From IMG/VR virus record IMGVR_UViG_3300010998_000005, positions 14,095-78,094 of that record: a stretch of 64,000 nt of DNA. One strand, written 5' to 3'. The translations under genes were made by a program, and so were the position numbers. Below, piece after piece: positions 3,275 through 43,272 of the stretch. The stretch's first letter is position 1. Each line of letters starts with the position of its first letter. The DNA is from a virus. Taxonomy: Duplodnaviria > Caudoviricetes. Below the pieces are notes generated by a model that was not told the DNA's origin, did no database searches, and saw nothing but the letters and a program-made list of their open reading frames with translations.

Positions 3275-4135
3275 ATGACAGAGGATTTAGAGAAAAAGGT
3301 TGAGCGTGCGATAAAACTCATTCAGAGTGCGAGTAAGATTGCTGCTGCTAATGGTTGTCCTGAAATAGAGGTGTGTTATTCAGGCGGCAAAGATTCCGAT
3401 GTTATCTTGGAGTTGACGAAGATGGCTGGTGTGCCTTATAGGGCTATTTACAAGAATACTGGCATAGACCCTAATGGAACTATCAGACACGCAAAAGACA
3501 ACAACGTAGAGATAATGCCGCCGAAGAAGAAGTTTATAGACCTGCTTGCTTATTATGGTATGCCTTCACGCAGAAACAGGTATTGCTGTCAGCATTTGAA
3601 AGAGTACAAGATACTTGACTATGCTATATTGGGTATAAGAAGGGATGAAAGCGTGGCAAGGAGGGAACGATACAAGGAGCCAGAGCAATGTCGGGAATAT
3701 AGCAAGAAAGAGAAATGTCGGCAATACTTTCCTATACTTGATTGGACGAAAGATGACGTGTTGGGGTTTATCAAAGAACGTGGTATCAAGTTGCATCCTA
3801 TATACTACAAGGACAATGGGGAGATAGACGTGGAACGCAGATGCGGCTGCATGGGATGCCCTATGGCTTCATACAAAAAGCGTCTTGAGGAGTTCAAGAA
3901 GTACCCCAATATGGTTAAACTTTATGTACGTGGTGGGGGGCAATACCTTGACAATCACAGCCTTAGCAAGATTGCGAAACTATGCAAAGATGGTTATCAG
4001 TTCTTTTGCTTTGACGTTTTTTGCGAACGCTCAAACATTAGATTCCAACAAAAGTTTGGTGCAAACCTCTTTGATGACGGCATAGACTGCAAGAAATTCT
4101 TGGAGGACTATTTCAAGATAAAGTTCAAGGATTAA
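3275..4135 (+). CDS. PAPS reductase / DndC-like PP-loop protein
   Basis: YSGGKDS PP-loop, RNRYCCQHLKE, GIRRDES, PILDWT and RCGCMGCP motifs typical of the family. Confidence 0.85.
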   Translation: MTEDLEKKVERAIKLIQSASKIAAANGCPEIEVCYSGGKDSDVILELTKMAGVPYRAIYKNTGIDPNGTIRHAKDNNVEIMPPKKKFIDLLAYYGMPSRRNRYCCQHLKEYKILDYAILGIRRDESVARRERYKEPEQCREYSKKEKCRQYFPILDWTKDDVLGFIKERGIKLHPIYYKDNGEIDVERRCGCMGCPMASYKKRLEEFKKYPNMVKLYVRGGGQYLDNHSLSKIAKLCKDGYQFFCFDVFCERSNIRFQQKFGANLFDDGIDCKKFLEDYFKIKFKD

Positions 4136-4971: not shown

Positions 4972-5538
4972 ATGTTAGAAAAGATTGAAGAATACACCAA
5001 TCGTGCCTATGCCAACGCTCGCAAGCACGGCTTTCACGACGAGGAACTAAGCATTGAGCATTGTTTAATGCTTGTAATAACCGAGGTGTCGGAAATGGTA
5101 GAAGCGGACAGAAAGGATAGGGAAAGGGCTTCCGTTGAAATCTTTGTTGATGCTTTGCGAAATGTAAAGTTTACGCAGGCATTTGAGGACTATATCAAAG
5201 ACCGTGTTCCTGATGAAATGGCTGACGTGTGCATACGTTTGTTTGACCTCTTGGGTGTATTAGACAAAAAGGAAAGGATAGACTTCGATATGCTTGGACG
5301 TGTCATTAACACAAGCAAAAAGAGTGTAGGCTTTGATGCCATGTCCTTTACCGAGCGTGCGTATGCTTTATGTGGTATATTGACAAACAAGCCTCATATC
5401 GCTATACGACTTGTATGCCGTGCGCTGGCTTTTGTTATGTATTGGGCAAAGGACTTGAATATAGACCTTGACTGGCATATTGAAATGAAGATGCAGTACA
5501 ACGAATTGCGTGCAAACAAGCACGGAAAGAAATATTAA
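4972..5538 (+). CDS. MazG-like nucleotide pyrophosphohydrolase (all-alpha NTP-PPase)
   Basis: LMLVITEVSEMVEADRK and DEMADVCIRLFDL acidic metal-binding helices. Confidence 0.75.
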   Translation: MLEKIEEYTNRAYANARKHGFHDEELSIEHCLMLVITEVSEMVEADRKDRERASVEIFVDALRNVKFTQAFEDYIKDRVPDEMADVCIRLFDLLGVLDKKERIDFDMLGRVINTSKKSVGFDAMSFTERAYALCGILTNKPHIAIRLVCRALAFVMYWAKDLNIDLDWHIEMKMQYNELRANKHGKKY

Positions 5539-5559
5539 ACCAAATAAACAGTAAAACGA

Positions 5560-5946
5560 ATGGAATTAACAGGAACAGTAGTAGCCGTATTAGGGGAACA
5601 GAAGTTCAACGGCAAGAACGGAGAAATAAGGAAGCATGGCTTTGTCATTGAAACAAGTGGCGAATACCCCAAAAAGGTTGCCTTTGATGTCTTGGATAGT
5701 GGCGACAAGGACAAGTGGGGAAAGATGCAAGAACACGTTGTGGATGGCAATAATGTGTCCGTTTCTTTTGAAGTTTCTTCAAGGGAATATCAAGGCAGGT
5801 GGTTTACACAAGCCAATGCCTTTAGGGTAATGCCTTTGTCGGGTGCAGGTGCAAGCGCACAAGCAACACAAAACCAAGCGTCTAATGCCGAACCAATACC
5901 AGCGAGTGCGCCAGTGGTACAAAATGAAGGCGTAGTGCCATTTTAG
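5560..5946 (+). CDS. DUF3127-family OB-fold (SSB-like) protein
   Basis: MELTGTVVAVL...YPKKVAF...VSVSFEVSSREYQGRWF pattern with a flexible tail ending in PF. Confidence 0.8.
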   Translation: MELTGTVVAVLGEQKFNGKNGEIRKHGFVIETSGEYPKKVAFDVLDSGDKDKWGKMQEHVVDGNNVSVSFEVSSREYQGRWFTQANAFRVMPLSGAGASAQATQNQASNAEPIPASAPVVQNEGVVPF

Positions 5947-5984
5947 GCAAAGCAGATAGTTCACACGAAAACAAAAAGAATTTT

Positions 5985-6365
5985 ATGGGTAGGAATGATG
6001 CGTTGCAAGCGTTGTGTAGGGAATACCTATGCAGGCTTGAAAGCGTGGCACGGAAATACGGTTTGTTGCCACAACTTAACACCTTGATTGTATCAAGCAA
6101 TAATAACACTTGTGTTGCGACCTTGGAAGATGTAGAAATGCTTTCAAGGGCGTGTAACGATGAACGTGTGTCGGCTTGTGGATTGACTAAGTTATTAGGC
6201 TTGTCATATCGCTATTGCCGTGAACACAACGTGTTCGACAAAATTAAAAGGCTACACAACAACGGCACTTATAGCAAGGTAGATGCGATGTTGTATGAAG
6301 TGGAGCAACCCAAGCCTGCGACCAAGAAGAAAAGGATTAGGCATAAGAAATGGACTATTGTATAA
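5985..6365 (+). CDS. Hypothetical protein
   Basis: ORF track, co-directional within the operon. Confidence 0.7.
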   Translation: MGRNDALQALCREYLCRLESVARKYGLLPQLNTLIVSSNNNTCVATLEDVEMLSRACNDERVSACGLTKLLGLSYRYCREHNVFDKIKRLHNNGTYSKVDAMLYEVEQPKPATKKKRIRHKKWTIV

Positions 6366-6383
6366 CGAAAACGAAAGAAAAGT

Positions 6384-6788
6384 ATGAATAAGAAACCGAA
6401 ATTCTACATTAAGAACGCAAAGGGCAGATACGAGGAATACAAAGAACCCGTACAAGACTACGACAACAAGTTATACCGTAAAGTGGGTAACAGATATGAG
6501 CCTTGCGATATGCTTGTAACGCAAAGTTTAAGCGAGGGTGTGTGGGTAGTGACCAAGCATAAAAGCAGTAAGTCCTATGCAAGCGGAAAATATCTTTTGG
6601 AAAACTTCATGTGCCTAAAGGCGAGTGACATTCAAGAAGTATCGTTGGCAAAGTTAGGCGGTATGGAGAAGTTAGCACACTATCTATCGCAACATTGGGA
6701 TGAGTTACCTACAAACGCAAGCCAATACGAGCGATGTCAAGCGATAGTAGGGTTGTTGTTCAAGTACGAAAATCACAACGAAAGTTAA
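6384..6788 (+). CDS. Hypothetical protein
   Basis: ORF track, co-directional within the operon. Confidence 0.7.
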   Translation: MNKKPKFYIKNAKGRYEEYKEPVQDYDNKLYRKVGNRYEPCDMLVTQSLSEGVWVVTKHKSSKSYASGKYLLENFMCLKASDIQEVSLAKLGGMEKLAHYLSQHWDELPTNASQYERCQAIVGLLFKYENHNES

Positions 6789-6943
6789 AATTTTGGTGTA
6801 TTCAAATTCTTTTCGTAACTTTGCACAAGAATTAGTTGAAAGTGGTGTGCGAGACCGCTAATGACAATACTTATAGCCCCTTTCGTGTAGGTGATACTCG
6901 CACTATCCCTACCGATTGGGGCGTTTTATTTGGAAAATGTAAA

Positions 6944-7786
6944 ATGGAATATACGAAAGATAACCCACTTAAAGTAATAACCCTTTGCAGTGGTTATGAT
7001 AGTCAGTGCCTCGCCCTGAATAGATTAAAAGGGTGTTATCCCGATTTCGACTATGAATTAGTTGCTTGGTCTGAGTTTGACCCCGAAAGCAAAGCATCGC
7101 TGGAGAAGCAGCCTGCGGTTATAGCACATAATGCCTTATTCCCACAATGGAAAGACCGCAATCTTGGCGATATGACTAAAATAGAGTGGAATAAACTAAA
7201 TCTGCAATGCGACTTATTGTTTTATAGTACTCCATGCCAGAGTATTTCCGCGGCAGGACTGCAACACGGATTTGTTGAGAGTAGCGGTACACGTTCAAGC
7301 ATTATCTGGAACGTGCGTGATGCAGTAATAGCACTAAAACCAAAATTCCTATGCCTTGAAAATGTTAAAGCAATGGTGTCAGGCAAGTTCGTGGGAATGT
7401 TTAATCTGTGGCAGAGAGAGTTGGAAAAACTCGGCTATGCTAACTTTGCACAAGTCCTTAATTCTAAAGACTACGGCGTACCACAAAACAGAGAGCGTAT
7501 ATTCCTCGTTTCAATAAGGATTGACAATGAGAATGATTACCCTAAGTATTATTTCCCACAGCCTTTCCGTTTGGAAAAGAAACTCAAAGATGTGTTAGAG
7601 GACAATGTGGACGAGAAGTATTACCTGAGTGATGAAAGGGTGCAGGGTTTAATGGCAAGTACGGAGAAAGAGCAGGAGCGTGGAAATGGCTTTGCGTGGA
7701 ATCCGACAGATGGCAGCGGTGTTGCTTGCACCATTCAGACGACACAGAACAGGAAAACGGATAATTACTTGTTTGATGAACAATAA
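6944..7786 (+). CDS. C5-cytosine DNA methyltransferase, N-terminal catalytic part (motifs I-VIII)
   Basis: Motif I TLCSGYD, catalytic STPCQ, motif VI ENV, motif VIII DYGVPQNRERIF; motifs IX-X are missing. Probable start ATG 6944. Confidence 0.9.
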   Translation: MEYTKDNPLKVITLCSGYDSQCLALNRLKGCYPDFDYELVAWSEFDPESKASLEKQPAVIAHNALFPQWKDRNLGDMTKIEWNKLNLQCDLLFYSTPCQSISAAGLQHGFVESSGTRSSIIWNVRDAVIALKPKFLCLENVKAMVSGKFVGMFNLWQRELEKLGYANFAQVLNSKDYGVPQNRERIFLVSIRIDNENDYPKYYFPQPFRLEKKLKDVLEDNVDEKYYLSDERVQGLMASTEKEQERGNGFAWNPTDGSGVACTIQTTQNRKTDNYLFDEQ

Positions 7787-7971
7787 AATTACCCCCCCAG
7801 AGGTGGATATGCGAACAGCGGATACCGACACCGCAGACAAAGGATGGTTGTTGTCCTGCGTTGACAGCGACATACGATTATGCGAGTTTTGCGAATATGT
7901 TTAGCGTGGGTCATTATCCAAGGATGGGTGTAATAGAGATAGGTCATTATGAAGAAGTTTATACCGATTAA
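7776..7971 (+). CDS. MTase variable-region cassette 1 (frame broken at C7 tract 7792-7798)
   Basis: With C6 it reads MNNKITPQRWICEQRIPTPQTKDGCCPALTATYDYASFANMFSVGHYPRMGVIEI... Confidence 0.6.
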
Positions 7972-8134
7972 CACGGACGCTGATGGTAATGCAAAGACTA
8001 TTTTGGCTTGTTGTTATAAATTTGGTTTTTCAGCCTTGTTGAATTGGGAAGGTTCAACAATGACTTGCGTAGGTGTGGTACAAGATGAAGAAACTGACCG
8101 AAGGAATCCGAATGAAGAAGATACTTGTTTATGA
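7949..8134 (+). CDS. MTase variable-region cassette 2
   Basis: MKKFIPINTDADGNAKTILACCYK...TCVGVVQDEE. Confidence 0.65.
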   Translation: MKKFIPINTDADGNAKTILACCYKFGFSALLNWEGSTMTCVGVVQDEETDRRNPNEEDTCL

Positions 8135-8320
8135 TGATTATAATTCTGTTCTACCCCCCCCAATAAGCAGGGGGTTATAGGAACGATAACGCCACAATTC
8201 GGCAACTCTACATTAAGAAATGGCTGGAAAATAATAGAAGTATATGAAGAAGAAAGCGACAGGCGGTGTGCGCCTTGCGAAGATGATACACAAGGTAAAC
8301 AAGCCTTATTTGTGGATTGA
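8085..8320 (+). CDS. MTase variable-region cassette 3 (frame broken at C8 tract 8154-8161)
   Basis: With C9 it reads ...MKKILVYDDYNSVLPPPNKQGVIGTITPQFGNSTLRNGWKIIEVYEE... Confidence 0.6.
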
Positions 8321-8414
8321 CACTTACAACCAATGTGTAAGTGACATTGCCGGAACGATAAAAGCGAGAATAAATAGTAATAATATGTATTATGTAAGTG
8401 TACCAAATGGCTAA
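8244..8414 (+). CDS. MTase variable-region cassette 4
   Basis: Manual translation MKKKATGGVRLAKMIHKVNKPYLWIDTYNQCVSDIAGTIKARINSNNMYYVSVPNG*. Confidence 0.65.
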   Translation: MKKKATGGVRLAKMIHKVNKPYLWIDTYNQCVSDIAGTIKARINSNNMYYVSVPNG

Positions 8415-8595
8415 ACAAGCATACGGACTCGGACGCTCTCGCAGTAGCAGTGGGAAAGGTGATATTGTAAATTGGCATCTTAATCCTTACGTCAACTGCA
8501 TCCACACTCTTGTAGGTGGAGGGTGGAAAACGATGGAAGTCTTAATTGTAGAAGTTTATGATGATACTGACTTGTGCGATAAGAGGAAGGAGTGA
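8407..8595 (+). CDS. MTase variable-region cassette 5
   Basis: MAKQAYGLGRSR...YVNCIHTLVGGGWKTMEVLIVEVYDD. Confidence 0.65.
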   Translation: MAKQAYGLGRSRSSSGKGDIVNWHLNPYVNCIHTLVGGGWKTMEVLIVEVYDDTDLCDKRKE

Positions 8596-8728
8596 TGGCG
8601 AGTGGCATTCGTCCGACCATAGCCAGAGGTTAGAAGTCGGCGGTGACATAGCTAATTCGATAACGTCTGTAAGCAAGAACAGTTTAATACTGATAGTTAA
8701 TGAAGATAGTAAAAGCGATAGGTCGTGA
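8558..8728 (+). CDS. MTase variable-region cassette 6
   Basis: Manual translation MMILTCAIRGRSDGEWHSSDHSQRLEVGGDIANSITSVSKNSLILIVNEDSKSDRS*. Confidence 0.65.
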   Translation: MMILTCAIRGRSDGEWHSSDHSQRLEVGGDIANSITSVSKNSLILIVNEDSKSDRS

Positions 8729-8882
8729 AAGGACGGAAGAGGAAAAGAGACGTAGGCATTTGTATGGTGACAAAGGGGCAAGGTTCTCTAAAGGTAAGCA
8801 GTTATGCCTACTTGGTGATATAATAGGAGCGATAACGACTTTATGCACAAAAGACAACTTGATATGCGAGATAGAATTATAA
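8700..8882 (+). CDS. MTase variable-region cassette 7
   Basis: MKIVKAIGRERTEEEKRRR...DIIGAITTLCTKDNLICEIEL. Confidence 0.65.
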   Translation: MKIVKAIGRERTEEEKRRRHLYGDKGARFSKGKQLCLLGDIIGAITTLCTKDNLICEIEL

Positions 8883-9044
8883 AATTAGGGTACTATATAA
8901 AGCCCAACCGAAAGAATCCGAGCAAGGGTGTGGTGTATAGCATTGAAGGCATTGCACCTTGTATGTGCGATTTTTCTGGGGGGGGGTAATTTAGTGCCGA
9001 CAATAGTAGTAAAAGATGAACGGGAAAGTAAAGAAACTGTTTAA
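8864..9044 (+). CDS. MTase variable-region cassette 8 (G9 tract 8978-8986 places TAA in frame)
   Basis: MRDRIIKLGYYIKPNRKNPSKGVVYSIEGIAPCMCDFSGGG*; with G8 it continues GNLVPTIVVKDE... Confidence 0.6.
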
Positions 9045-9158
9045 CATCTACGGCTTTGATGGCGGCAACTTCGCAGGGAATGTGTACGACCCTGAATATA
9101 TCAGTCCTGCCCTCAGCACAATGGGGGGGGTAATCAGCAACCTTTAATAATTACAGAT
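9016..9158 (+). CDS. MTase variable-region cassette 9 (G8 tract 9123-9130; G9 would fuse it to the C-terminal gene)
   Basis: MNGKVKKLFNIYGFDGGNFAGNVYDPEYISPALSTMGG; with one extra G it reads GNQQPLIITDMEQKQK... in frame with 9159. Confidence 0.65.
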
Positions 9159-9431
9159 ATGGAACAGAAACAAAAAATCACCTTGCCTAAAGAATTAGAG
9201 GGCAAGAAGTTTAGAATCAGAAAACTTACTCCGAGAGAATGCGGACGTTTGCAAGATGTGGATGATAAAGACATTGACATCATCGAGAACGCAGGTTTGA
9301 GTAATTCAGCAATGTATAAATTGTACGGGAATAGTATAACTTTATCGGTCTTATTTTTCATTTTTGAAGAATTATTTATACCTTTGCACCCGAAAAGGGG
9401 CAAAGAGCCTATTCAATTATTATTATTTTGA
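9159..9431 (+). CDS. C5-cytosine DNA methyltransferase, C-terminal part (motifs IX-X)
   Basis: RIRKLTPRECGRLQ (motif IX) and YKLYGNSI (motif X). Confidence 0.85.
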   Translation: MEQKQKITLPKELEGKKFRIRKLTPRECGRLQDVDDKDIDIIENAGLSNSAMYKLYGNSITLSVLFFIFEELFIPLHPKRGKEPIQLLLF

Positions 9432-9432
9432 T

Positions 9433-10728
9433 ATGAGAAAGGAAAAAGTAATTCAGATGGATTTAGATGGAAACTACATTTCCGTCTTTGAAAGTGCAGT
9501 TGCTGCTTCTAAAGCATTAGGAGTTGGTTGTGGTAACATAAGTTTATGTTGTCGTGGACTTGCGGACAGAGTAAAAAATTATCGTTTTAGGTATGTTGAT
9601 GATGTACTAAACGAAAAAGCCGTGAAAATTCGACAAGTACGACACAACAAAGCGTCAGATAACCACAAGAAGGCATGGATTCCGAAAAGGAGAAAGGTTT
9701 ATCAATTCTCTTTAGATGCAGTATTGATTGCTTGCTATAAAAACGCAGATATAGCATCAAGTAAAAACGGAATCCCAAAGCATCTAATATTCCAATGCTG
9801 TAATGGGACAATCATCCAAAGCGGAGGGTATATATGGAGTTATAATAACAAAGTAGAATCTGTATTGAAGAACGATATTCCAACTGAACAAGGAGAAGAG
9901 TGGCGTGATGTAGTCGGGTACGAAGGTCTTTATATGGTAAGTTCTTTTGGTCGAGTTTGGAGTTTAAGGAGGAGAACAGAAAAAGTCGGGAATTTGATAG
10001 GTGGATTTATGCTTACAAACCATATAGACAATAGGGGGAGAACGTCCAACACGCTAACAACAAAAAATGGGGAAAAAGTTAATGCAGTAACCGCTCGTCT
10101 TGTTGTAATGTCTTTTATTCCTAATCCAGACAACCTTCCTCAAGTAAACCATAAGGATGAAAATCCATTAAACAACCATGTGGATAATCTTGAATGGTGT
10201 ACGGCTAAATATAATTGCAACTATGGAACAAGGATTGAAAGGATTAAAGAGAAGCAAAACATACCAATACTCCAATACACACTGAATGGTGAATTTGTTG
10301 CAGAATACGCTTCAATGCACATTGCCGCGGATGCTATAAATGCAGATGCAGGACACATTTGTGATTGTTGCTTGGGAAATAGGTCTTATGCCTATGGTTT
10401 CTTTTGGCGTTACAAAGATGATGAAATGTATAATTCTGCCAAAGTAAGGCTGCAAGATAAAATTTCCGCAAGTAAAAAATCGAGAGCAGACAAGTTTACG
10501 GCGAGAGCATTAAATGTAGTACAACTTGATATGAACGGTAAATATATACAGACACATCAGTCAAGTAGGCTTGCAGCGGAAAGAGTTGGAAGTTTCCGAC
10601 CAATGATTATAAATTGTTGCAATGGGAAAATATCAAATGTTAAAGGCTACAAGTTTATGTACGAGCGAGATTTCCGCAAGATGTTCATAGAAACGGAAAA
10701 CGAAAGCCAACAACTAAGTTTATTCTGA
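9433..10728 (+). CDS. HNH homing endonuclease with NUMOD4 and multiple NUMOD1-like DNA-binding repeats
   Basis: EEWRDVVGYEGLYMVSSFGRV (NUMOD4), QVNHKDENPLNNHVDNLEWCT (HNH), four VxQxxLxG...S...A(S/A) repeats. Confidence 0.85.
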   Translation: MRKEKVIQMDLDGNYISVFESAVAASKALGVGCGNISLCCRGLADRVKNYRFRYVDDVLNEKAVKIRQVRHNKASDNHKKAWIPKRRKVYQFSLDAVLIACYKNADIASSKNGIPKHLIFQCCNGTIIQSGGYIWSYNNKVESVLKNDIPTEQGEEWRDVVGYEGLYMVSSFGRVWSLRRRTEKVGNLIGGFMLTNHIDNRGRTSNTLTTKNGEKVNAVTARLVVMSFIPNPDNLPQVNHKDENPLNNHVDNLEWCTAKYNCNYGTRIERIKEKQNIPILQYTLNGEFVAEYASMHIAADAINADAGHICDCCLGNRSYAYGFFWRYKDDEMYNSAKVRLQDKISASKKSRADKFTARALNVVQLDMNGKYIQTHQSSRLAAERVGSFRPMIINCCNGKISNVKGYKFMYERDFRKMFIETENESQQLSLF

Positions 10729-11544: not shown

Positions 11545-12108
11545 ATGAAAGAAGAATGGAAAGAAATAGATGGTCATAGTGGGTACATGGTATCTAACTA
11601 TGGAAACATAAAAAGCCTGTCATTTAACAAGACTGGTGTAGAGAAAAAACTTACACCATGCGTTGATAAGAAAGGCTACCTTTTTGTGTGTCTTCACGGT
11701 AAACAATTAAGGGTACATAGACTTGTGGCATTAGCATTTATACCAAAAGTTAATGGAAAAGAACTAATCAACCACATCAATGAGGATAAACAGAATAATG
11801 CCGTATGGAATTTAGAGTGGTGTACCGCATCTTATAATCTTAATTACAATGGTAATAGAGAAAGGATTTCCAAGAAGCACAAAAAGAAAGTGTATGCTTA
11901 TAAAGATAAAGAGTTATTTCAATCTTTCGACAGTATAACAGAAGCCGCTAAAGCGTTCGGTGTTTCTATCAATAATATATCTTCGTGTTTACACGGAAGA
12001 AAGAAACAAGCATGTGGGTGTGAATGGTCATTCGAGTTGAACAAGGAATACTACGACAAAGCCATGAAGCGCATCGACAACGAACGCCGACAACTGACAT
12101 TATTTTAA
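11545..12108 (+). CDS. NUMOD4-HNH-NUMOD1 homing endonuclease carrying an MTase-derived C-terminal tail
   Basis: EEWKEIDGHSGYMVSNYG, RVHRLVALAF, INHINEDKQNNAVWNLEWCT; tail FELNKEYYDKAMKRIDNERRQLTLF. Confidence 0.85.
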   Translation: MKEEWKEIDGHSGYMVSNYGNIKSLSFNKTGVEKKLTPCVDKKGYLFVCLHGKQLRVHRLVALAFIPKVNGKELINHINEDKQNNAVWNLEWCTASYNLNYNGNRERISKKHKKKVYAYKDKELFQSFDSITEAAKAFGVSINNISSCLHGRKKQACGCEWSFELNKEYYDKAMKRIDNERRQLTLF

Positions 12109-15070: not shown

Positions 15071-15955
15071 ATGCAGGTTACAATGAAAAAAAAAAGAACA
15101 TCTTTTGTCTTTTATGGCGATTGGTATGATGCCATTTGCGGACTTGATGACAGTACGGCTTTAGAGGTCTGTAAATCCATTATGGCTTACGCCCTTGGAA
15201 GAGATGAGCCAAAACTATCCGACATGGCAAAAGCAATAATGATGCTTATACGACCCCAAATTGATAGAGATACCGAAAAATGGCTTAATACAAGAGAAAA
15301 GCGAAGTATCGCAGGAAAAAAGCATAAAGGAAATCAATATAGTAAAGTGGAACAAATGGAACAAAATGGAACAAATGGAACAAATGTTCCAACAATGGAA
15401 CAAAATGGAACAAATGGAACTGTTAATGTAAATGATAATGTAGATGTAGATGTTAATGATAATGTTGTTACCATAGATGATAACAAACAATTATCTTCAT
15501 TACATTCAGATAATATAATATCAACTAAAGTTGATGCGTCATCTTCTCCTGTCTGGGCAGAGAATTTTGTAAAATTCTTTAATAATGCGATAGACAGGAA
15601 TAATTCGGTAATAGCAAAAATAAGAATTATTCAAGGGAATAGGGAAAAGCAACTGAAAGCGAGAATAAAGCAATATGGGGAAGAAGCCGTATGTGAGGCT
15701 ATCACAAAAGCAACGCAATCTGCTTTCCTTAACGGGCAAAAAGGATTTATAGCAACAATAGACTGGATATTAAAACCAAACAACTTTCCAAAAATCTTAG
15801 AAGGTAATTATGACAACAGAGAAACAAGCGTATTTAGAACCAATGAATGTGAGCAGATTAATAAGCGGATTGCCTACGGACAGCAGACAACAAGACTTAT
15901 GCGAGAGGAAGAAAATGTCCTTAACCTTGCAAACGCGGACAATCCACCGTTTTAA
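15071..15955 (+). CDS. Replication initiator (DUF6291-like N-terminus, DnaD-like C-terminus)
   Basis: RTSFVFYGDWYDAI...IMAYAL N-domain, internal DNA repeats, and C-domain ATIDWILKPNNFPKILEGNYD. Confidence 0.75.
   Translation: MQVTMKKKRTSFVFYGDWYDAICGLDDSTALEVCKSIMAYALGRDEPKLSDMAKAIMMLIRPQIDRDTEKWLNTREKRSIAGKKHKGNQYSKVEQMEQNGTNGTNVPTMEQNGTNGTVNVNDNVDVDVNDNVVTIDDNKQLSSLHSDNIISTKVDASSSPVWAENFVKFFNNAIDRNNSVIAKIRIIQGNREKQLKARIKQYGEEAVCEAITKATQSAFLNGQKGFIATIDWILKPNNFPKILEGNYDNRETSVFRTNECEQINKRIAYGQQTTRLMREEENVLNLANADNPPF
15348..15420 (+). repeat. Iteron-like repeats (7x TGGAAC[AA]) inside the initiator gene; probable replication origin
   Basis: Copies start at 15348, 15357, 15367, 15376, 15396, 15406 and 15415, followed by an AT-rich stretch. 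Confidence 0.7.
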
Positions 15956-42564: not shown

Positions 42565-43272
42565 ATGTTTATTCGGAAACAAAGCAGAAAAAAAAAGAAA
42601 ACGAAAAGGAAAGTTTTACACGAACAACAAAAGAAAGGGAAGAAAGATATGCAGTTATCGGGAAAGAAGATACGTGAATCACAGAAGAAGAAGCAAGAGG
42701 CACTTGATAGGCTTGAAGAAGAACTCAGTGACTTTTCTATTGACGTAAAGCGTGAAATAGCCGACATAATCAATGACTGCCCTACCATAGTACGTTTAGG
42801 TGAAAAGGACTATGTGATGAAAGATTTGCGTTTTTATAGCATCTATCGCATCTTTAACCTTGCTTACAAGATGATAAAGGCAGATGAAAAGTTAGATGAT
42901 GACAACAAGGTTATTGTGGCTTTGTGTACCGATTTGGATGCTATGTGTGAGATAATGGCAATTATACTTTGCAATCACTTGTTTACGGCAGAAGGTGCAA
43001 AGACCTATGATGATATAGAAAGTTTGCGCACAAGGAATGACAAGATGGTTGAAATAATGAAAGCCAAGGTAATGTATTCCACCTACGATACTAACCAATG
43101 GGGTGCGATAGTGATTGGTGCTATAAAGTCTATTGATTTAGGCGGTTTTTTTTTACTCAAAAAATCGGTGAATACGCTTTTAACTTCGCATCTGTCGAGG
43201 AAGAAGAAGTCAGTGGAGACAGCCTCACAATTTACGGAAGCACAGTCGTTGCGGATGCTTCAGACTTCTTAA
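42565..43272 (+). CDS. Tail assembly chaperone (G form; probable start MQLSGKK ~42649)
   Basis: Synteny before the tape measure gene; contains a slippery T9. Confidence 0.7.
   Translation: MFIRKQSRKKKKTKRKVLHEQQKKGKKDMQLSGKKIRESQKKKQEALDRLEEELSDFSIDVKREIADIINDCPTIVRLGEKDYVMKDLRFYSIYRIFNLAYKMIKADEKLDDDNKVIVALCTDLDAMCEIMAIILCNHLFTAEGAKTYDDIESLRTRNDKMVEIMKAKVMYSTYDTNQWGAIVIGAIKSIDLGGFFLLKKSVNTLLTSHLSRKKKSVETASQFTEAQSLRMLQTS

Follow-up and report, generated by a model that had tools for sequence, protein, structure and literature searches.

A split C5 cytosine methylase whose target sequences probably vary at random in a gut or rumen phage

Introduction

Phage-encoded methylases are a main escape route from restriction, and it is an open question how a phage weighs wide protection against what methylation costs it, for example through methyl-dependent restriction. 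The 64-kb stretch of phage DNA analysed here (the window) raises this question through an array of TRD cassettes for a C5 cytosine methylase, four of which are interrupted by runs of G or C. Is this array a broken gene, or are its recognition modules switched one by one? Multispecific C5 methylases have reportedly been described by Trautner and colleagues in the temperate Bacillus phages SPR, phi3T, rho11s and H2. In such SPR-type methylases, several TRDs lie in a row between motifs VIII and IX within one reading frame and one polypeptide, and each TRD is thought to give one target, resulting in protection against several restriction systems. To our knowledge, repeat tracts have not been described in them. 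The evidence presented below led us to conclude that a phage of the gut or rumen probably varies at random which sequences get methylated.

Results

A C5 methylase encoded in three parts

The locus encodes a C5 cytosine methylase in three parts, namely an N-terminal ORF, nine TRD mini-ORFs and a C module, all on the plus strand. The N-terminal ORF (6944..7786) carries motifs I-VIII and the first TRD (TRD1, approximately 7676-7786), matches Pfam PF00145 at profile positions 2-227 (E 4.5e-42) and ends in ...NYLFDEQ*. An in-frame TTG lies upstream at 6836; relatives instead begin at an ATG (MEYTK...; alignment A1, nine relatives). The C module (9159..9431), with motifs IX-X, matches PF00145 at profile positions 265-322 (E 1.4e-7), ends in QLLLF and starts at a conserved Met, which is found 8-13 residues ahead of LPxEL in 20 of 22 relatives. 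The C5 motifs are conserved in both parts, including PCQ, ENV and QxRxR among motifs I-VIII, and RKLTPRE and GNS in motifs IX-X.

The single polypeptide usual for C5 methylases was not found, as the N and C modules lie in different frames with many stops between them, and the same holds for every close relative where both modules were found. The division of the motifs over separate ORFs, each with its own conserved start, is a feature of heteromeric C5 methylases of the M.AquI/M.EcoHK31I type, and the locus displays it. Between motifs VIII and IX, we identified ten TRD-like units in series, all of which have a T-[LI]-type core and end in a hydrophobic strand. The preliminary description of this DNA had counted nine cassettes; the number is revised here to ten units, consisting of TRD1 and nine mini-ORFs. 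These units are not contiguous in one frame, each being a separate ORF, mostly shifted by +1. No Pfam match was obtained in the TRD mini-ORFs, as expected for variable regions.

Four G/C tracts each interrupt one cassette

The preliminary description had placed four G/C tracts in the array and named, for each, a single-base change that would repair the interrupted cassette. Both the coordinates and the frame effects were reproduced at all four tracts. Cassette 2 (7776..7971; body ...CCPALTATYDY...GVIEIGHYEE), which starts at an ATG within the last codons of the N-terminal ORF, is moved from frame 0 to frame 1 by the C7 tract (7792..7798), and C6 restores it. Homologous positions in relatives carry C6, C8 or C9, the L003 ortholog being in frame with C9 (dN/dS 0.07 against L003). 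Cassette 4 (8085..8320; body ...GVIGTITPQFGN...WKIIEVYEEE) is moved from frame 0 to frame 2 by the C8 tract (8154..8161) and is restored by C9; its orthologs have no tract at this site in L004, L019 and L014, C8 in L012 and C6 in L043. Cassette 9 (8843..9044) is interrupted by the G9 tract (8978..8986), where a TAA immediately follows a GGG and the ORF as sequenced stops at 8989. Shortening to G8 removes this TAA and gives ...SGGGNLVPTIVV..., and the ortholog in L001 is tract-free and fused to the C module. Cassette 10 (9016..9147) terminates as ...MGGVISNL* at the G8 tract (9123..9130). One extra G yields ...TMGGGNQQPLIITDMEQKQK..., in frame with motifs IX-X, so that the cassette reads into the C module; orthologs carry G7, G8, G9 or the interrupted GGGGGGAGG at this site, and eight of the ten that were scored are OFF.

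The remaining five cassettes are intact. Cassette 3 (7949..8134) is a 61-aa mini-ORF without a tract, and its orthologous TRD is the last cassette in L049 and L028, where it is fused to the C module. Cassette 5 (8244..8414; 56 aa) shares 74% identity with its L001 ortholog. In cassette 6 (8407..8595), the GGG loop is written non-repetitively (GGT GGA GGG), while its orthologs carry G10 (L002), G7 (L011) or G8 (L012) there. Cassette 7 (8558..8728) encodes 56 aa (AIRGRS...QRLE...ANSITSV...LILIV), and cassette 8 (8700..8882) encodes 60 aa. The family of the latter comprises 126 clusters of stand-alone 47-105-aa proteins in the protein collection; the cassette-8 proteins P0001 and P0002 are 88-95% identical. 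As assembled, the window thus holds four OFF cassettes and six open recognition units.

As the preliminary description had also observed, no G/C run of 7 or more bases occurs in the window beyond these four tracts, the next longest being three C6 and one G6; the A10 at 15086 and the T9 at 43146 that it had named as control runs are both present. About 1.4 such G/C runs would be expected from base composition, against four observed, all within 1.34 kb. The whole circular genome (78,094 bp) contains only one further run of this length, a G8 on the coding strand of a third methylase gene (Pfam PF01555), where it is in frame, and therefore all five runs of the genome are in methylase genes. In the rest of the window, only 10% of Gly residues are encoded by GGG and 17% of Pro residues by CCC; because both codons are rare there, the runs do not reflect ordinary codon use. 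A first mark of a contingency gene is a homopolymer inside its coding sequence at which a one-base change toggles the frame, and the window tracts have this mark.

The lengths of the window tracts are known from assembled contigs only (Logan contigs of four runs, three of them from the probable source sample), and homopolymers are error-prone on some platforms, so it could be asked whether the real tracts are in frame and the interruptions are sequencing or assembly errors. In run X2, a contig ends at the C8 tract; however, X2 has a depth of only 3-4x and its contigs are broken in many other places, which makes this end uninformative. Two further runs of the sample yielded contigs with identical C7, G9 and G8 lengths, which are thus not one-off consensus errors. 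In run X4, the N module was present only as a diverged relative. Moreover, the OFF tracts of relatives described below come from many independent studies and cannot all be consensus errors, and the staggering of the frames is independent of the tracts. Such an artefact is therefore scarcely credible.

Tract lengths vary among relatives at homologous sites

The preliminary description had called for a comparison of tract lengths across related genomes; 12 viral loci and 80 metagenome loci were fetched. About 70 related arrays from viral and metagenome contigs have the same design. The split, staggered layout is shared by relatives whose N module is at least about 48% identical; more distant ones are ordinary single-ORF multi-TRD methylases without tracts (e.g., L077). 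Rumen and gut metagenomes commonly contain members of this family, with at least 600 pattern matches and at least 480 confirmed relatives. A search with the exact flanks of the G9 and G8 tracts found no near-identical relatives in viral contigs, and the only hit among GenBank phages was a 60-nt motif shared with Clostridioides phage methylases.

Tract density was 2.14 per kb in the arrays versus 0.039 per kb in the flanks, an enrichment of approximately 55-fold. At homologous sites, relatives carry a tract of 6-9 bases or non-repetitive codons instead. The clearest case is provided by L050 and L051, which come from different metagenomes and are identical over 3,597 nt save for G8 versus G9 in one cassette; the cassette-8 ortholog is consequently ON in L051 and OFF in L050. 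Between L011 and L024, all four indels fall at G/C runs. The second mark of a contingency gene, a tract length that differs between otherwise identical genomes, is thus found among the relatives. By this comparison, the earlier proposal that slipped-strand tracts act as independent ON/OFF switches of single cassettes is supported. Of the 166 family tracts, 64 were in frame, a share that does not depart from one third (p=0.16), and the 102 OFF tracts comprise 59 that need +1 and 43 that need -1.

The excess of OFF tracts, with all four OFF in the window and most scored cassette-10 orthologs in the same state, is also what might be seen if the runs were non-adaptive hot spots that arose in Gly- or Pro-rich loops and broke unneeded cassettes in an eroding array. 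Yet the breaks are almost confined to the runs, and both halves of the broken cassettes remain open and conserved. For every cassette with orthologs, the four OFF ones included, dN/dS was 0.07-0.33 with dS saturated; judged by these ratios, the cassettes, interrupted ones included, are under purifying selection. Erosion would account neither for the strong enrichment of runs in the arrays nor for their construction from rare GGG and CCC codons. Furthermore, the ON share equals the one third expected for free switching, and homologous sites differ by single-base steps in both directions. We consider erosion decidedly unlikely for these reasons. Nevertheless, for the window tracts and the cassette-10 orthologs themselves, decay or constant counter-selection would fit too.

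OFF lengths would also be tolerated if RNA polymerase or the ribosome slipped at the runs, so that OFF-looking templates yielded some full-length TRD and the run set a dose rather than a heritable state. Transcriptional slippage is generally possible at runs of 8-10 identical bases. Non-programmed transcriptional frameshifting is discussed in PMC6260861. Against such slippage, the known programmed transcriptional slippage in bacteria uses mainly A or T runs, and heritable length differences were seen directly between near-identical genomes. We regard slippage at the level of expression as very improbable here.

Returning to heritable switching, the preliminary description had further suggested that the last tract could switch the whole enzyme. 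This is probably not so, as a conserved Met of its own starts the C module, which in L025 and L039 is an ORF by itself. A tract inside the N module was found in relatives, in frame in L017 and out of frame in L050 and L051; this N-module tract is a whole-enzyme switch in some relatives.

Each cassette has its own start in a staggered frame

At the junctions, the preceding mini-ORF has a conserved end, in which a hydrophobic strand leads to Tyr-Glu (codons TAT GAA), and the next ATG lies inside this end. Because the ATG sits in TAT GAA, the mini-ORFs are mostly shifted by +1, and each overlaps its successor by a few codons. Among the automatically detected junctions, 265 of 364 are +1, and roughly every second junction has a stop within 0-2 codons. 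For the junction Tyr, TAT is used 133 times and TAC 12 times (TAT 92%), as compared with about 52% TAT elsewhere. This evidence speaks for separate initiation, and the staggered layout is that expected for termination-reinitiation coupling.

The tracts are not the cause of the array's fragmentation, as L001 and L005 have no tracts and yet show the same staggered mini-ORFs. We also rejected the possibility that the four tracts together restore one long ORF: frames are staggered at every junction, tract-free relatives included, and no combination of tract lengths gives such an ORF because every cassette is its own mini-ORF and most are shifted by +1. Programmed +1 ribosomal frameshifting at TAT GAA, which would produce a fused multi-TRD protein, was likewise rejected. 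The junctions lack any slippery or re-pairing codon, and the stop may follow at once or only after more than 16 codons. What is conserved is the ATG (TAT over TAC), and nine shifts in series would leave almost no product.

TRDs may act in trans on a split or permuted core

A circularly permuted core, encoded by a single ORF (IX-X-I..VIII) with two PF00145 stretches, is found in L009, L036, L074 and L007. It is followed by 4-7 free-standing TRD mini-ORFs and then by unrelated genes; even the first cassette is +1 relative to the core. As this subfamily has only free-standing TRD mini-ORFs, we argue that the TRDs act in trans. Two further observations point the same way: one TRD family can be a mid-array mini-ORF at some loci and C-fused at others, and the cassette-8 family includes the 126 clusters of stand-alone proteins.

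Alternatively, only TRD1 and the last, C-fused cassette might be used, with the mid-array cassettes as untranslated spares that are moved to where they are expressed when conserved junctions recombine or the DNA between them is deleted, and that are inactivated by the tracts. A silent reservoir of this kind would be in keeping with this difference in the position of a TRD family, mid-array or C-fused, between phages, with the varying cassette order among relatives, and with the short arrays of L049 and L028, which hold just TRD1 and one fused TRD. However, start codons would be needless in spares, whereas the TAT bias at the junctions preserves them; the permuted-core subfamily has no downstream fusion partner and its first cassette is out of frame with the core; recombination between junctions cannot create a fusion, because the +1 stagger is reproduced; and purifying selection persists across saturated synonymous divergence. 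Silent spares are thus an unlikely explanation, and we return to translated cassettes that supply TRDs in trans.

A complex model of the N module, the C module and cassette 7 reached an ipSAE of 0.80, against 0.01 for the best control. In calibration, 58 of 80 solved complexes attained the mark set for this score, as did 2 of 110 mismatched pairs. The model runs had at least 89% of contacts in common, with a partner pLDDT of at least 69. In the predicted complex, the tail strand of the TRD pairs with KKFRIRKL (motif IX), and a TRD loop touches PQNRE (motif VIII). Since the pieces come from a fold solved as a single chain, this pass may be a memory of the canonical methylase. The model shows that the predicted pieces fit together, not that they bind in trans, and no activity data are available.

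Discussion

We favour, with reasonable though far from complete confidence, the view that the phage encodes a multi-specificity C5 methylase in separate cistrons, with TRDs that are exchangeable and individually switched; there are no data on methylation, expression or switching rates. According to the proposed mechanism, one ORF would provide catalytic motifs I-VIII with the first TRD and another would provide motifs IX-X, while the nine mini-ORFs between them, of about 50-65 codons, would provide one TRD each. The TRD peptides are inferred to dock non-covalently between the N and C modules as exchangeable specificity subunits, and each would add one methylated target sequence. The G/C runs sit in Pro-Pro-Pro or Gly-Gly-Gly stretches of individual TRDs, so slippage of a run in replication would flip its TRD ON or OFF independently of the others; as every cassette has its own start, an OFF cassette would leave the downstream ones unaffected. 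The likely benefit, again inferred, would be bet-hedging of the phage methylome. More methylated sites may protect from more host restriction systems, at the possible cost of exposure to methyl-dependent restriction, or at other costs.

For the lineage as a whole, a more specific proposal can be made, on which we are not quite evenly balanced and lean slightly towards doubt. It holds that the free-standing TRD mini-proteins of approximately 55 aa are exchangeable subunits that dock by their conserved terminal strand on a shared core, split or permuted, each being switched by its own hypermutable G/C run, with a master core tract in some relatives.

Like the SPR-type methylases, the enzyme of this locus is phage-encoded and has serial TRDs between motifs VIII and IX, and the single-ORF form of the SPR type is that of the outgroup loci here, e.g., L077. 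Unlike in the SPR type, the TRDs are frame-shifted mini-ORFs, many of them with G/C runs, and the core is either split or circularly permuted. We know of no three-piece C5 methylase that has been demonstrated. The natural C5 methylase heteromers known have two subunits, as in M.AquI and M.EcoHK31I, where the small subunit of the latter carries motif IX only; in addition, M.SssI, M.HhaI and others show fragment complementation, with break points in the variable region being tolerated (PMC3404938). The likeness to M.AquI and M.EcoHK31I consists in catalytic motifs divided among separate polypeptides, whose assembly is inferred in our case. Those enzymes have two pieces and one specificity, whereas three kinds of pieces are proposed here, with many TRDs competing for one core. 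In the S subunits of Type I restriction-modification systems, a separate polypeptide also supplies target recognition, but the likeness is one of working principle only. S subunits belong to an unrelated fold and class (N6-adenine), are large, have two TRDs and vary by recombination, and the locus is not a member of that group.

With respect to switching, the locus resembles the phasevarions of bacteria, which include the phase-variable Type IIG methylase cj0031 of Campylobacter (PMC4889913, PMC6902483), Type III mod genes and Type I hsdS. In both, repeat tracts in coding sequence shift the frame through slipped-strand mispairing, which in phasevarions leads to random, heritable ON/OFF methylation. 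Phasevarions are cellular genes with one switch per enzyme, their specificity differs by allele, and the role studied has been gene regulation or defence; the present locus differs in its phage carrier, its C5 class and its several independent switches on the specificity modules of one enzyme. Hypermutable polyG tracts of Campylobacter phages are said (Sorensen et al. 2021, Cell Rep 35:109214, in the reference list of PMC10877375) to create phenotypic diversity within a phage population, and they reportedly concern receptor binding and host resistance. These runs are likewise phage-borne, the difference being that DNA modification is reportedly not involved there.

In the literature searched, we found no virus in which repeats drive phase variation of DNA modification, nor does a 2026 review on epigenetics in prokaryotes list such a case. 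If the phage does switch single recognition modules at random, it would be the first case found. Given how common the family is in metagenomes of rumen and gut, existing samples allow a direct test of the idea. Trans-acting TRD peptides, if real, would represent a new way of building a C5 methylase and a natural toolkit of small, portable DNA-recognition modules. If the proposal for the lineage is true, a phage population would possess a combinatorial, heritable and reversible repertoire of methylomes.

Organization of the split methylase and its TRD cassettes

The C5 methylase of the window is encoded in separate pieces. An N-terminal ORF (6944-7786) matched the C5 methylase family at profile positions 2-227, corresponding to motifs I-VIII (N module), and a second ORF (9159-9431) matched it at positions 265-322, corresponding to motifs IX-X (C module). 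Three-frame translation revealed ten units resembling target-recognition units (TRDs) from the tail of the N-terminal ORF, which forms the first, up to motifs IX-X. The other nine (cassettes 2-10) are mini-ORFs. Each opens at an ATG of its own with basic residues (e.g., MKK), contains a T-[LI]-type core for recognition, and closes with a hydrophobic strand and then acidic residues. In successive units, the frames (coordinate mod 3) are 2; 0 then 1; 2; 0 then 2; 0; 1; 2; 0; 2 then 0; and 1 then 0. The changes within units are four G/C runs (tracts), and the remaining ones are junctions, where each new ATG is embedded in the tail of the preceding unit. Most of these junctions are +1; cassette 9 (ATG at 8843) has a +2 offset. 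A single long ORF arising through altered tract lengths was ruled out, as no combination of lengths yields it. The C5 and N6/N4 methylase genes have two HNH/NUMOD homing-endonuclease genes at their 3′ ends (9364-10728 and 11545-12108), and four consecutive proteins terminate in QL(T/S/L)LF-like tails.

A protein-pattern scan of viral contigs gave 12 related loci with an N module identity of 62-80%, and an alignment-based scan of metagenome contigs gave at least 80 further loci (at least 600 stretches matched a pattern, and at least 480 encoded a relative). Among the matches listed, all relatives down to about 48% identity share the design of an N-terminal ORF, staggered TRD mini-ORFs and a C module; at 46% identity or less, the relatives are tract-free methylases of the ordinary single-ORF type, and several of them hold at least four TRDs in frame, the classical multispecific form. 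Two loci, L001 and L005, contain no G/C run at all, yet have staggered intact mini-ORFs like those of the window, indicating that the stagger is a design feature and not decay. The architecture around the tracts is conserved and unusual. In locus L035 (L035:2034-2372), a single mini-ORF joins a cassette-7-family TRD in frame to one of the cassette-8 family, and in-frame TRD pairs also occur in L004, so the mini-proteins are able to carry one or two TRDs.

Several further features were seen in individual relatives. Residues 5-80 of the N module are inverted in L010 (5744-5974, minus strand) directly upstream of the rest of the gene (6001-6498, plus strand), through either an inversion or a misassembly. 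An intein-like insertion interrupts the C5 core of L074 (L074:3345-5528) at the catalytic Cys of motif IV (...FYSTPC/FVAGTLVL ... VHN/CQSIS...), and insertions of about 1 kb are found at the same residue in L011 (about 5010-6001) and L012 (about 5004-6001). A related phage has a C9 run (L069:6889-6897) close to the 3′ end of an ORF of 317 codons; the ORF has a CxxxCxxC-like motif and may encode a radical-SAM enzyme.

Proposed separate translation of the mini-ORFs

Among the matches listed, 265 of the 364 junctions detected automatically, by a heuristic that includes some false ones, are +1. The typical TRD terminus is a hydrophobic strand and then Glu, a hydrophobic residue and Tyr-Glu, with the next ATG inside TAT GAA. 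The Tyr codon at the junctions is TAT in 133 cases and TAC in 12, compared with about 52% TAT elsewhere in arrays (the TRD stretches between the modules) and N modules; judged from codons alone, this synonymous preference is as expected if the embedded start codon is under selection. At about half of the junctions a stop follows 0-2 codons on, giving overlaps of the ATGAATAA kind, which are typical of termination-reinitiation coupling. The C module starts at a Met located 8-13 residues before LPxEL in 20 of 22 relatives, among them 16 of the 17 with a TRD fused in frame upstream, and the C module is a stand-alone ORF in L025 and L039.

G/C tracts as candidate switches

The four tracts, all on the plus strand and out of frame (OFF), are C7 (7792-7798) in cassette 2, C8 (8154-8161) in cassette 4, G9 (8978-8986) in cassette 9, and G8 (9123-9130) in cassette 10. 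Sequence inspection placed them exactly where the preliminary description had, and the one-base changes that it proposed do restore each of the four interrupted cassettes. Its remark that no other G/C run is as long was borne out by a count of all homopolymers: the 64 kb hold no further G or C run of at least 7, the next longest being three C6 and one G6. About 1.4 such runs would be expected from base composition, against four observed, all within 1.34 kb. A G6 at 3935 lies in a PAPS-reductase-like gene (3275-4135; ...LYVRGGGQY...); in the relative L049 the matching codons form a G9 (L049:1690-1698), at which the ORF stops.

The whole genome (G000:C1), identified as a phage by a large terminase subunit, a sliding-clamp gene and related IMG/VR contigs, is circular, with 78,094 bp and 40% G+C. 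It contains a single further G/C run of at least 7, which reads as G8 on the coding strand of a third DNA methylase gene (Pfam PF01555), so that all five such runs of the phage lie in methylase genes. This G8 (G000:C1:3491-3498; L093:692-699), in a minus-strand gene (G000:C1:2920-3876) whose protein ends in QPTLF, is in frame (...ENGGGRTS...), and the gene may be a further phase-variable methylase, currently ON.

In loci with both modules, among the matches listed, 96 G/C runs were counted in 44.9 kb of arrays (2.14/kb) versus 7 in 177.8 kb of flanks (0.039/kb). Of 166 classifiable array runs among the matches listed, 64 (39%) keep the frame, a share that does not differ from one third (p=0.16); among those out of frame, 59 would be restored by +1 and 43 by -1. 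The preliminary description had proposed comparing tract lengths across related genomes, and at sites homologous to the four tracts they range from 6 to 9 bases; some of these sites are tract-free and use non-repetitive codons, e.g., GGG GGA GGT in L019 and CTT GGT GGC in L001. Two loci from different metagenomes, L050 and L051, share 3,597 identical bases save one indel, G8 versus G9, in a cassette-8-family TRD that is truncated in L050 and complete in L051; between L011 and L024, at 96% identity, there are four indels in 1.6 kb, every one of them at a G/C run. Outside the array, GGG accounts for 10% of Gly codons, CCC for 17% of Pro codons, and GGG-GGG for 1 of 54 Gly-Gly pairs, so the runs do not reflect ordinary codon use. 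Moreover, dN/dS is 0.07-0.33, with synonymous sites saturated, for every window cassette with orthologs, the four interrupted ones included. The interrupted frames could instead stem from erosion of the array or from sequencing error, but the tract density, frame share, length changes, codon use and dN/dS, taken together, argue against both and fit contingency tracts, as far as comparative sequence data can tell. The phase variation suggested in the preliminary description is thus supported by comparative evidence, and it remains unmeasured in the window's own population; at the level of assembled contigs, two additional sequencing runs of this sample show identical lengths for C7, G9 and G8.

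Some relatives carry a G run in the N module (...KIDW-GG-QPDFDLL), upstream of motif IV. It is an in-frame G8 in L017 (L017:652-659) and a G7 that breaks the module in L050 and L051 (L050:808-814 and L051:808-814), and has the appearance of a master switch acting on the enzyme as a whole. Given this tract in some relatives and the C module's own conserved Met, the earlier suggestion of whole-enzyme switching by the last tract is unnecessary and, for this phage, probably incorrect.

Inferred action of the TRD peptides in trans

That the TRD peptides work in trans is inferred from three observations. First, L009, L036, L074 and L007 have a core that is one circularly permuted ORF, motifs IX-X preceding I-VIII (the L009 core, L009:5728-6798, shows two PF00145 stretches). 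This core has no recognisable TRD and ends in the ...ENYE junction seen at other loci; downstream come four to seven free-standing TRD mini-ORFs and, after them, unrelated genes, leaving the TRDs no fusion partner there. L054-L056, L055 and L072 probably also belong to this subfamily. Second, TRDs of one and the same family can be mid-array mini-ORFs at some loci and C-module fusions at others; the cassette-8 family includes 126 clusters of stand-alone 47-105-residue proteins in a large protein collection, none with a Pfam domain. Third, a complex model combining cassette 7 with the C module and a TRD1-less N module, built with an alignment for each, scored 0.80, with the best control at 0.01; among solved complexes 58 of 80 reached this mark, and among mismatched pairs 2 of 110. 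Contacts agreed between runs to at least 89%, and partner pLDDT was at least 69. In the model, the terminal strand of the TRD is paired with KKFRIRKL (motif IX) and the recognition loop contacts PQNRE (motif VIII), a placement that is canonical. The modelled pieces belong to a fold that has been solved as one chain, so the high score may reflect the predictor's prior knowledge of that fold, and the prediction shows that the pieces fit, not that they bind. To our knowledge, a three-piece C5 methylase has not been established. C5 methylases with two subunits occur naturally, and complementation between fragments is likewise established (PMC3404938).

Discussion

The two-subunit enzymes M.AquI and M.EcoHK31I are among the closest to the window methylase. 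The multispecific C5 methylases of Bacillus phages share its logic, but are one polypeptide in which no repeats are known. Bacterial phase-variable methylases share the type of switch proposed here, although they are cellular with one switch per enzyme, whereas the window enzyme belongs to a phage and has several candidate switches. The polyG tracts of Campylobacter phages are reported to be the same mutational device with a different function (study cited in PMC10877375). Neither a phage methylase with repeat-switched recognition modules nor one with free-standing TRD peptides was found in a literature search, which left out most subscription journals, or in a 2026 review.

We infer that, if all units formed a single long ORF, one TRD with an out-of-frame run would take everything behind it out of the protein as well, motifs IX-X included. 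A separate start for each TRD would insulate the switches from each other, and such insulation would permit combinatorial states, 16 for the four tracts of the window.
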